From: Syntrophales bacterium | Lineage (GTDB): Bacteria > Desulfobacterota > Syntrophia > Syntrophales > UBA2210 | Assembly (NCBI GenBank): GCA_963662405.2 | Contig: CAXXKT010000001.1 | Coordinates: 512,001 to 576,000, forward strand | Length of the DNA stretch: 64,000 nt | Direction: 5' to 3' | Part shown: in pieces, positions 21,295-24,200 of the stretch | Layout: the number at the start of each line of letters is the position of its first letter | Position numbering within the stretch: position 1 is the first letter of the stretch | Position numbers: made by a program

Positions 21295-24200
21295 TTATAC
21301 AGTATTTCCATAACCTAATCAATTAAAAACAACTTCTTCGCAAAGGGAGGCATGAACAACTGCCATGAGGAGAGTAACGGGGACGATGTTCCTTCCGTCA
21401 AGGAGGTGTCACCGTCGCCCTCCCCCCTCCTGCCGACCGATATCACGAGAGCCCGGTATTGTTTCGAATCGGTTTTATATTATTGCCATATCCGGTATGT
21501 TTGTTGCCCCTATCATTCCCCAGAAAAGTATTGCATTTTGTCTGGCACTATACTACTAAAGCAACTCATTAACCTGAAAGGCAGAGAGTGAACATATGCT
21601 CCAACTGATGAGGAAACATGCCAGAAACTGGCTCATGAAGGTCGTCCTCGGTATTATTATCGTTGTCTTCGTATTCTACTTCGGCTCCATGCGGGGGCGG
21701 CAGGCTACCGAAACAGTCGCCTTACTGGATGGCTCACAGATAGCGTACGCGAATTTCAGAACGGAATATCAGAATCTGCTCGATTTCTACCGCCAGCAAT
21801 ACGGGGAATACCTGACCGACGATTTGATCAAGAAGATCAATATCAAGCAGCAGGCATTCGACAACATCGTCAATAAGGCGATCATCCTGTCAAAGGCCGA
21901 CGAGCTGAAGCTGGACATCAGCGATAACGAACTCAAGACAGCCATTTTTTCCTATCCGGCCTTTCAGCGGAACGGCGTCTTCGACAGCGATCTGTACCAG
22001 CGCGCCCTTCGCTATCAGCGGATGACTCCGGAAACGTTCGAGGCATCGCAACGCGAGGCCATGAAGATCGGGAAGATTGAGCAGATCATCAGAGAATCGG
22101 CAAAGGTATCGGAAGAGGAAGTGTATGAAATATACCAACTCCAGAGCAGGGAGATCACCCTGGATTTCATACGAATCCCCATAGACAGCGTCACCACGAC
22201 GGAAAACCCGCCCGAGGAGGCACTGGAGGCATACCTTGAAGGGCATGCCGAGGACTTTCGGATCCCCCCGACGGCAACGATCGAATACATCCCTTTCACG
22301 GGGGAAGCCTTCACCGAAACCGCCGACATATCGGACAATGAGATAGAGGACTACTACGAGTACAACAAAGACGAATTTACCACGGGTGAAACAACGAAAC
22401 CCCTGGCCGAGGTACGGGAAGAAATCGTCGCGAAACTGGCATCGATTCAGGGAATGGATCAGGCCTTTGAAGAAGCAACAACGGCACACGATACGATCTA
22501 TCAAGAGGACAATTTCGAGGAATACGCCACAAAGCGGGGGCTTAAAATCGAGTCCGCCGAGCTTGCCCGCAACGCCCCCCTCACCGGTCGGCTTGCCGGT
22601 GTTCAGGACGACCTGGGCAATTACGTATTCAGCCTGCAAGAGGGTGATCTTGGACACGTTTTTTCCGACAAGGAGGGGTATTACGTCTTCAGGGTCGCTT
22701 CACTGAAGCCGACCCGTATCCCCGCGCTTCGAGAGGTTGTGAAAGAGGTGCAAGAAAGCTATATCCTGACACAGGCCGCACAGGCAAGCAAGACGAAGGC
22801 CGACGATATTCTCCGCCGTCTCAGGGATGGAGCGGATATGGCGAAGGTCGCACAGAAAGAGGGACTGACGATTGGCGAAACCGGCCTGTTTCTCCCCGGA
22901 CCCGAGATCCCTCAAATCGGCTATTCTCCGGACATGGGAAAGACCCTCTTTGAACTATCGGGAGAAAAGCCCTATCCGAACAGGATCTTCCTTATCGAAG
23001 GGAATTATGTGATTGCCAAGTTTCGAGGGAAGAGCATGCCGGACGAGGAAGACTGGAAGGCCAAGAAGGACTCACTGAAGCGGGATATCCTGAGCATGAA
23101 AGAACAGCAGTACTTTCTCTCGTGGGTGGAGAAAATGAGGAAAACAATGATCGACGAGGGACGATTGAAGATCCTCAAGAGGCTGGAAGACCTGTAACCC
23201 ATGAAGGCAGCACGAACAGCACTCGTTATTTATACCTGCGTCATGTTCACCGTCCTCGCGCAGGGCTCCCCCGCCGCCGAGAGGACCTATGCCCTCACGG
23301 TATCCGGATGCTGGGGGTGATCGGGAAAGGCCAGGATAAGGTCTATCCTGAAGAAGAGCCCGGGCATTATCGATTTTCAGATGGACGCGGAGAATTCCAC
23401 TATTACTGTACGCTTCGAGGACCAGACGGTGGCGATCGGCGAGATCGTTGAGAAGATCTTGGAACGCAAGTTCGAGGTACAGGCGATGACCGAGCTTGCC
23501 ACCGAATAAGGAAGGTCCTTCGCCCCCCCAACAGCGCCGCGCCTTCTCCCGAACAGGATCAGACTCGACCCTGTTCCTCGCCACCTTCGGCCGCCGATCT
23601 GCCCGCGAGCCACCCGGTGGAGAAGGCCGCCTGAAGATTGTATCCTCCCGTGTCGGCATCCACGTCCATGACCTCACCCGCGAAGAAGAGCCCTTCCATG
23701 CGACGCGACGCCATTGTCCGGGGATCAATTTCATTTGTGTTGATTCCTCCGGCCGTTACGATCGCCTCGGCAATGGGGCGGACCCCCGTTACCTCCAAAC
23801 AAACCCCCTTGAGCCACCCCCGCAGGCGTCCCCGTTCTTCCGCGGTGATCTGGTGCCCTCTCCGATCCGGGGGGATATGTACCTGTTCGGCACACAGGGG
23901 AATCAGCTTCGCGGGGAGGAGCCCCTTGAGGAGGGTCTCGAATTTTCGTTTTCCATGGAGATCAAAATCGCGGAGGAGCCGCCCATCCATGGCACGTTCA
24001 TCGAGGGCGGGTTTCAGATCGATGGAAACGGCTACCTTCTTCCCCTCATCGAGGACATCAGCGATCTCTCCGCTCAGGGTAAGGATCACCGGTCCGGAGA
24101 GGCCGAAGTGCGTGAAGAGCATTTCCCCGAATGCCTCGGCGCGTTTTTTCCCCTCGACAAGCATCGTCACATTCACGTTGCGCAGGCTGAGGCCCTGGAG

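Follow-up and report, generated by a model that had tools for sequence, protein, structure and literature searches.

Evidence for a selenoprotein family with a predicted exported HMA-fold domain and a shifted CxU/CxxU site, widespread in Syntrophales

In this study, a stretch of 64,000 nt from the genome of a Syntrophales bacterium (contig CAXXKT010000001.1, positions 512,001 to 576,000; referred to as the window) was analyzed, and an uncalled ORF in it was assigned to a protein family that was not found in the searchable catalogues. As judged by sequence comparison, the members are almost certainly selenoproteins, and they carry an unusual, shifted CxU/CxxU site.

Identification of the gene

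The ORF at 23201–23509 on the plus strand, when translated with TGA as selenocysteine (Sec), had this TGA as codon 40 within G-C-W-G-U (Table 1). A preliminary description had reported an uncalled ORF of 102 aa after a SurA-type chaperone gene; the reading frame, the single TGA and the GCWGU motif were all confirmed. That gene callers miss it was also borne out, as no ORF of at least 60 aa was listed in this frame under translation table 11 and the public copies are fragments or readings with W. One public 90% cluster contained 98-aa forms with W at the Sec site, from contigs shorter than 750 nt, and C-terminal fragments of 37–45 aa, some named "hypothetical protein"; the W is presumably TGA translated under another code. 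A 60-aa database fragment bears the name "cation transporter", and clusters of the Cys form in the ESM Atlas are labelled "hypothetical protein". When the single protein was used in a word-based homologue search, 4 candidates came back, none of them significant.

Table 1. Features of the selenoprotein locus (positions in the window)
Feature	Position	Strand	Remarks
Predicted selenoprotein gene	23201..23509	+	102 aa, ATG to TAA, single in-frame TGA
Predicted signal peptide	23201..23278	+	Residues 1–26, cleavage after P-A-A; heuristic
Predicted HMA domain (ferredoxin-like, beta-alpha-beta-beta-alpha-beta)	23279..23506	+	AlphaFold, Foldseek, VIA-align, PDB profile search
C37-W-G-U40 motif	23309..23320	+	TGA at 23318–23320; two residues off the canonical GMxCxxC register
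SECIS-type hairpin	23332..23350	+	7-bp stem, 5-nt loop, G at loop position 2, codons R45–L50
PpiD/SurA-type chaperone gene	21596..23197	+	Upstream, 533 aa; context
HI0933-family flavoprotein gene	23559..24824	-	Convergent; TIGR00275, 455 bits; context

The ATG of the selenoprotein ORF lies 3 nt past the stop codon of the PpiD/SurA-type gene, and the two genes are probably co-transcribed. The arrangement of ppiD followed by the selenoprotein gene was present in 12 of the 13 loci of family f1, and a gene of the HI0933 family stood beside a family member at 10 loci. Rfam matched nothing within 23100–23700, and a scan for promoters and terminators gave counts at the chance level.

TGA as a selenocysteine codon

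Several lines of sequence evidence indicate, with high confidence, that the ORF is a real gene and encodes a selenoprotein. Every one of the 105 intact loci containing a TGA had it at the motif. The bacterial SECIS element is a hairpin just 3′ of the UGA with a G early in its apical loop. The loop G is mentioned in the accessible part of PMC1976440. A hairpin after the TGA, as had been described for a few relatives, was found inside the R-I-x-x-I-L codons of the genes, with all 6 core pairs formed in 97 of the 105 Sec loci and a G at loop position 1 or 2 in 104. An alignment of 53 copies, 46 of them distinct, had 95.7% of its cells paired, compared with 24–44% in slid controls, and two-sided stem changes numbered 30 versus 7.3 in shuffles (0/500), a result that kinship may inflate and that concerns a structure derived from the same sequences. 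The Arg codon in the stem was AGG in 100 of the 105 Sec loci; elsewhere in the first 56 of these genes, 63 of 244 Arg codons were AGG. A strict hairpin rule was passed by 88 of the 105 Sec loci and by 1 of 5 Cys loci; since it was passed by only 5,694 of the 140,207 TGA triplets (4.1%) of the genome carrying the ORF (G000), the hairpin is not due to chance.

The hairpin of G000 itself is less convincing when taken singly. It was 2 kcal/mol above the minimum free energy (MFE) structure of the 45-nt stretch, becoming the MFE structure after removal of the first 12 nt, and the single-sequence z-score was only -1.27, which counts against it. In G000, selD and an fdhA-like gene had similar stems, with loops about 19–23 nt from the UGA. 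These two genes and a Sec-MsrA were the usable selenoprotein candidates in this genome, and a motif scan for further ones gave mostly chance matches.

G000 possesses selA, selB and tRNA-Sec. Its selD is also present and is split over two reading frames, which may stem from misassembly or from a defective gene. Matches to selA were obtained in 189 of the 201 genomes of the order, leaving 12 without; 5 of the TGA-bearing genomes (84–92% complete) had no selA match, and selB was found in all 5. Genome G035 (98% complete) had no selA match and no selB over the cut-off, and its best tRNA-Sec score was 48.1 bits, with none at the 74–75 bits observed in 4 congeners. Its syntenic copy of the gene, in a yggS-maf/ManC-like context, has TGT in place of TGA and a broken stem, and so by sequence G035 appears to provide a clean natural Sec-to-Cys control. 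Forms with Cys at the Sec position occurred at 5 of 115 loci, the stem being degraded in 4 of the 5. The pN/pS values for the 38 codons 3′ of the hairpin, in 28 pairs from 8 f1 genes, ranged from 0.07 to 0.49 (uncorrected).

Predicted fold and export

The AlphaFold model displayed a beta-alpha-beta-beta-alpha-beta domain, with a mean pLDDT of 85, preceded by a signal-like helix at residues 3–19. The top Foldseek matches were Atx1, CopA, CopZ and MerP, with ATP7B also among the proteins returned by Foldseek and VIA-align; VIA-align against 6a71_A gave a Z of 12.2 and an rmsd of 1.4 over 72 residues. A PDB profile search also gave an HMA domain. Agreement among these models and searches supports an HMA fold for the mature domain, as had been proposed. 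Secretion, the other part of that proposal, also appears sound: a signal heuristic (not SignalP) detected a hydrophobic stretch at every one of 110 loci and, with a permissive pattern, an AxA-like end at 108, and the match to the MerP model covers the MerP signal region. The protein is therefore likely exported, with a predicted mature domain of about 76 residues.

Distribution and forms of the motif

With the single protein as the query, matches were obtained in 112 of the 201 genomes of the order Syntrophales; profile A1, built from 45 members and used at a threshold of E ≤ 1e-12, gave 151 matches in 123 of the 201 genomes, including 89 of the 143 of high quality. Among the 150 profile matches listed, 141 contained TGA (exactly one TGA in 140 and TGA plus TAA in 1) and 9 had no stop. 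These recounts agree with the matches and TGA numbers reported before, and the protein is indeed a common selenoprotein of Syntrophales. The family had been called order-wide; "widespread" fits better, because no profile match was found in families f11 (0/3) and f18 (0/4) among the genomes searched.

Motifs were examined in 115 of the 151 order loci. CxxU was present in 73, CxU in 31, and Sec preceded by no Cys (xxxU) in a single copy, L138. The remaining loci had CxxC in 3 cases, CxC in 2, neither Cys nor Sec in 4 (paralogues L131–L133 and L135) and a frameshift in 1 (L137).

Outside the order, members scoring more than 100 bits were found in 2 of 291 genomes of the phylum, and a sister form with 51–62 bits, having one U and no Cys, in 3 of the 291 (L102–L104). 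Named records with the selenoprotein family, searched with alignment A3, which is narrower than A1, were from Smithella, Smithellaceae, Syntrophaceae, Syntrophales or unclassified Deltaproteobacteria, and 45 of the 47 strong Syntrophales-type records had TGA at the motif. Exported proteins that lack GMxCxxC and have CxC, one Cys or no Cys at all also belong to the wider clade.

The motif is out of register with the canonical metal site

A gapless HMMER alignment to Bacillus subtilis CopA placed the family Cys opposite the Met of GMxCxxC. The register was likewise gapless against CopA, CopZ and MerP, 109 of 110 loci having their Cys opposite the Met, and 1cpz aligned with all 68 of its 68 residues on model positions 29–96. 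Counted from the Gly, Sec is at +3 in the CxU forms, which is the position of the canonical first Cys, and at +4 in the CxxU forms. The canonical second position was Thr in 33 of 33 CxU forms and was Cys in none of the 110 loci. GMxCxxC is thus absent from the selenoprotein family.

The preliminary description had taken the site to be the CxxC metal site turned into CxxU. What stands of this is the CxxU itself, with one Sec, at 73 of 115 loci; the equation with the CxxC site is too simple, the Cys being two residues earlier and GMxCxxC missing. Nor is there a single form of the site, as 31 of the 105 Sec loci have CxU instead, and the metal-site reading gained nothing from the neighbouring genes, with merT and merA not found in the flanks and metal-type genes at only 2 of 115 loci. 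Equivalence of the CxxU and CxxC sites is possible from the alignments, because hhalign does pair them, though only by way of two compensating 2-residue gaps.

Genomic context across the family

The neighbours in flanks of 1.5–3 kb at 115 loci (110 in the order and 5 outside) formed 235 clusters, and representatives of every cluster were scanned against Pfam. No gene for MerT, MerA or another HMA protein was detected in these flanks. The two loci with metal-type neighbours had a P-type ATPase (L136) and ArsR plus an ArsP permease (L134, a Cys form). MerT had no match in G000; a canonical HMA domain is encoded elsewhere in that genome. The commonest context other than that of the present locus was yggS-maf upstream and a ManC-like gene downstream. 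Other copies adjoin DUF362/Fe-S and 2-oxoacid:ferredoxin oxidoreductase genes, and a rhodanese gene adjoins locus L038.

Two lineages have neighbours of redox type. In family f7, the gene was followed at 10 loci by a same-strand gene for a TxxU peroxiredoxin that looks exported and whose mature part lacks Cys, and had an LpdA-type disulfide reductase upstream at 7 loci and cydB at 5. MerA has a C-terminal Cys pair; this pair is absent from the LpdA-type reductase of the f7 loci. In genus g8, 8 loci encode the protein as a fusion with a Thioredoxin_9 domain, which scored 26.9 bits (cut-off 25). A model of the fusion (8 close sequences) had a pLDDT of 56 and a pTM of 0.38 and was not informative on domain packing. 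As these neighbours come from f7 and g8 only, they are not independent observations.

Proposed function and alternative explanations

Between metal binding and a redox role in the periplasm, we lean slightly towards the latter, because of the adjacency of the Sec-peroxiredoxin in f7 and the thioredoxin-like fusion in g8. The redox reading further builds on the loss of the canonical metal motif and, apart from the two loci named above, the lack of metal-transport neighbours, together with these two lineages, which are related. UGA40 is almost certainly read as Sec by SelB bound at the in-gene SECIS hairpin, and the HMA-fold protein, once exported, would use Cys37 and Sec40, on the loop before helix 1, mainly as a redox centre cycling from selenol to selenenyl-sulfide. 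Either peroxide or a partner, for example an exported Sec-peroxiredoxin, would oxidize this centre, a thioredoxin-like partner would re-reduce it, and the role would be periplasmic oxidant defence or thiol repair, not delivery of metal to a dedicated transporter. We put the chances of a redox function for the Cys37/Sec40 pair at about even. According to the part of PMC13188914 available, most uncharacterized CxxU/UxxC selenoproteins are likely redox proteins. Counting against this function, the fold and the best models are those of metal carriers, L138 has Sec without Cys, and most copies, the present one included, are located among housekeeping genes (ppiD/HI0933 or yggS-maf/ManC-like). In the g8 fusions, moreover, the Cys of the thioredoxin domain is lost in 2 of 8, and the second Cys is kept in only 1 of 8. 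A more elaborate scheme, in which Syntrophales turned the HMA fold into an exported Cys/Sec oxidoreductase that resembles thioredoxin in function though not in fold, reduces the adjacent Cys-free Sec-peroxiredoxin of f7 and is recycled by a g8-type thioredoxin-like domain, forming an all-selenium peroxide defence, would be a rather unlikely elaboration of these gene neighbourhoods.

Binding of soft metals (Hg, Cu, Ag or As) in the periplasm, as a binder or chaperone like MerP/CopZ with Cys and Sec as ligands, either scavenging or donating to a transporter encoded elsewhere, is a serious contender, though somewhat doubtful on present comparisons. The HMA fold suggests it, MerP was the best model for 42 of the 45 members, the CxxU can be aligned with CxxC by hhalign, the related NF041115 and NF045683 are Sec-HMA families, and both the P-type ATPase and ArsR/ArsP neighbours and the canonical HMA domain elsewhere in G000 are compatible with it. 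Selenium has a high affinity for mercury. Against metal binding stand the missing GMxCxxC, the shifted register and the 31 CxU loci, the lack of merT/merA neighbours and of a MerT match in G000, and model scores that were all far under the cut-offs. It is improbable that the protein is a selenium/sulfur carrier or protein-interaction module, in which the selenol would be a single reactive handle and the Cys dispensable. The Sec without Cys in L138, the single U without Cys in the sister group L102–L104, the paralogues L131–L133 and L135 lacking both residues, and the rhodanese neighbour at L038 would fit such a role; yet 109 of 110 loci still have the Cys, and G035 retains the gene as a Cys form despite having lost the Sec machinery, which argues against a selenium carrier. 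One might suspect a genuine stop codon or a sequencing error at the TGA, which would make the region a pseudogene or a pair of short ORFs, from public databases having only C-terminal fragments or W-for-TGA readings of such genes, from the frameshift in L137 and from the selD of G000 in two frames. This is highly improbable, given that the TGA keeps to a single motif in 105 loci, that the codons after it are under purifying selection, that the hairpin covaries and that Cys takes the place of Sec where the Sec machinery was lost. As for a sequencing error, the letters were the same, with no differences, in two contig sets from a single public sample that may be the source of this genome. Of these explanations, the periplasmic redox role is retained as the one slightly favoured over metal binding.

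Standing in the literature and significance

Searches of the literature revealed no description of the family, and none is present in the accessible portions of PMC9312934, PMC12013277, PMC13326102, PMC1976440 and bioRxiv 10.1101/2022.07.06.499078. PMC13188914 (2026) covers 119 prokaryotic selenoprotein families, and the metal-related ones in its available part are NF041115 (UxxU), a cation ATPase (UxxC) and a MerT-type protein (C/SxxU). No entry in its 119-family table, as far as accessible, fits this protein; the supplements and BSepDB might list members.

The findings add a common selenoprotein family that annotation splits or misreads; members occur in 123 of the 201 genomes of Syntrophales, an order with a central place in anaerobic digestion and in methanogenic sediments. 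With its shifted CxU/CxxU site, the protein is a small and soluble system in which to ask whether Sec in an HMA fold is used for binding metal or for redox reactions. The general picture of selenoproteins is unchanged, Sec-containing HMA proteins having already been catalogued. Should the HMA fold serve as reductant of the exported Sec-peroxiredoxin, for which the odds are rather low, strict anaerobes would have an all-selenium periplasmic peroxide defence.

Comparison with known families

The fold is shared with CopZ/Atx1 and the N-terminal domains of CopA (PF00403), with Z values of 9.7–12.2 and rmsd of 1.2–1.7 (6a71, 1fvq, 6ff1 and 1cpz). The probability for the HMA profile was 98.8 (hhalign), and the present protein scored 21.7 bits with Pfam HMA (cut-off 24.8). 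The CopZ/Atx1 metallochaperones and the CopA N-terminal domains are cytoplasmic. They carry the canonical MxCxxC, which the selenoprotein family does not have.

Likeness to MsrA (PF01625), which is marked by its profile and by a GCFW catalytic motif with the MsrA insertion, was also considered, hhalign giving a probability of 53 versus the 98.8 for HMA. This reading was rejected because canonical HMA resembles MsrA more (84.6) than the family does. No MsrA model was among the NCBIfam matches of the 45 members; the structural matches listed were filled by HMA domains, so that the absence of MsrA from them tells nothing either way.

MerP (TIGR02052; PDB 1afi and 1osd) resembles the protein in having a signal peptide plus a single HMA domain and in being of the same size. 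The weak MerP/CopZ matches reported earlier were reproduced, the MerP model giving 19.6 bits for the present protein and 66.7 for the best family member (cut-off 92.55). The family differs from MerP in having no GMTCxxC, no merT/merA neighbours, and Sec in place of Cys.

NF045683, a MerT/CopZ fusion-like selenoprotein, and the Sec cation-transporting ATPase (UxxC) are listed with metal-transport functions in the available part of PMC13188914. These are membrane transporters or fusions, whereas the present protein is small, stand-alone and predicted to be exported. Weak matches to NF045683 were obtained for 14 of the 45 members (best 36.7 bits, cut-off 375), with no fused MerT membrane domain. 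A search of the phylum for NF045683 members gave none over the cut-off in 201 genomes.

NF041115 (UxxU_metal_bind), named "metal-binding (seleno)protein" in NCBIfam and given as a putative mercuric reductase with UxxU in Table 1 of PMC13188914, shares with the family the HMA fold and a Sec in the loop after strand 1. In contrast, the family has one Sec and not two, no GMx before the motif, and the motif two residues earlier. The ORF scored 13.7 bits in the genome search, the value reported before, and 14.3 with hmmscan, compared with a cut-off of 95; the best of the 45 members reached 33.9 bits (E 2.6e-8), and ordinary Cys-only HMA domains 57–79. High scorers L057, L074 and L109 have the canonical GMx[CU]xx[CU] register, and signal-like N-termini occur among the high scorers of the phylum (e.g., L057 and L074). 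L109 is a UxxU protein with 80.6 bits, and L074 has a signal-like start, GMTCxxU and 104.8 bits over two stretches. Since exported Sec-HMA proteins such as L074 pass NF041115, this kind of protein was already known. In a quick tree of 121 rows and only 75 columns, with the motif columns kept in, the family and sister rows were apart from canonical HMA and the NF041115 high scorers (SH-aLRT 96). With scores of 14–34 bits and a separate branch, the suggestion that it may be a distant subfamily of NF041115 was not upheld. On the sequence comparisons made here, the family is distinct from NF041115, MerP and NF045683, a member of none of them, and centred on Syntrophales.

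Junction with ppiD and genomic context

In 11 loci of family f1 (positions 23195–23203 of the window; L002–L011), the HMA-fold selenoprotein gene starts in frame, one codon past the TAA of the PpiD/SurA-type gene ppiD; this arrangement suggests that the two genes are translationally coupled in these loci. The tRNA-Sec gene was observed 12–19 kb from the HMA-fold selenoprotein gene in four genomes of one genus (G015, G124, G177, and G183), a proximity that may be plain synteny.

Possible redox partners and other selenoprotein genes

An exported-looking TxxU peroxiredoxin, the mature part of which is free of Cys, was found about 450–610 nt 3′ of the family TGA, at the loci listed in the table; gene callers split its ORF. 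A fusion protein was also observed to combine a CxU HMA domain with a C-terminal thioredoxin-like domain, the Cys of the latter being lost in part.

One-TGA MsrA genes resembling the copy in G000, the genome studied here, were present in 7 of 30 relatives. The selD gene of G000 carries its own in-frame TGA and a hairpin. It is split over two reading frames, with the frame change close to a short G run, and represents either an assembly error or a broken gene.

Features and loci identified
Feature	Location	Strand	Remark
mreBCD-mrdA-rodA	window 15859–21264	-	ordinary housekeeping; named by eye from translations
polA	window 25626–28319	-	ordinary housekeeping; named by eye from translation
Second MsrA, Sec at catalytic position	G000:C1:1577343–1577753	-	signal-like N-terminus
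selD	G000:C3:552135–553065 (L270)
TxxU peroxiredoxin	L021, L025, L029, L030, L046, L055, L165, L171, L174, L188
HMA-thioredoxin-like fusion	L037, L039, L040, L042, L043, L048, L049, L050
Exported UxxU HMA selenoprotein	L109:1468–1779	+	80.6 bits
Exported two-domain CxxU HMA selenoprotein	L074:1405–1923	+	104.8 bits

Sister group, Cys/Sec-free copies, and canonical-register proteins

In the sister group (L102, L103, and L104), the lone TGA occupies the first canonical Cys position, the second is Thr, and Cys is absent; the hairpin did not pass the strict rule for a SECIS-type stem 3′ of the TGA. Exported paralogues at L131, L132, L133, and L135 have a site with neither Cys nor Sec, and the family copy at L137 contains a frameshift. 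Outside the order, the UxxU protein of L109, scoring below the NF041115 cut-off, and the CxxU protein of L074 both have the canonical register.
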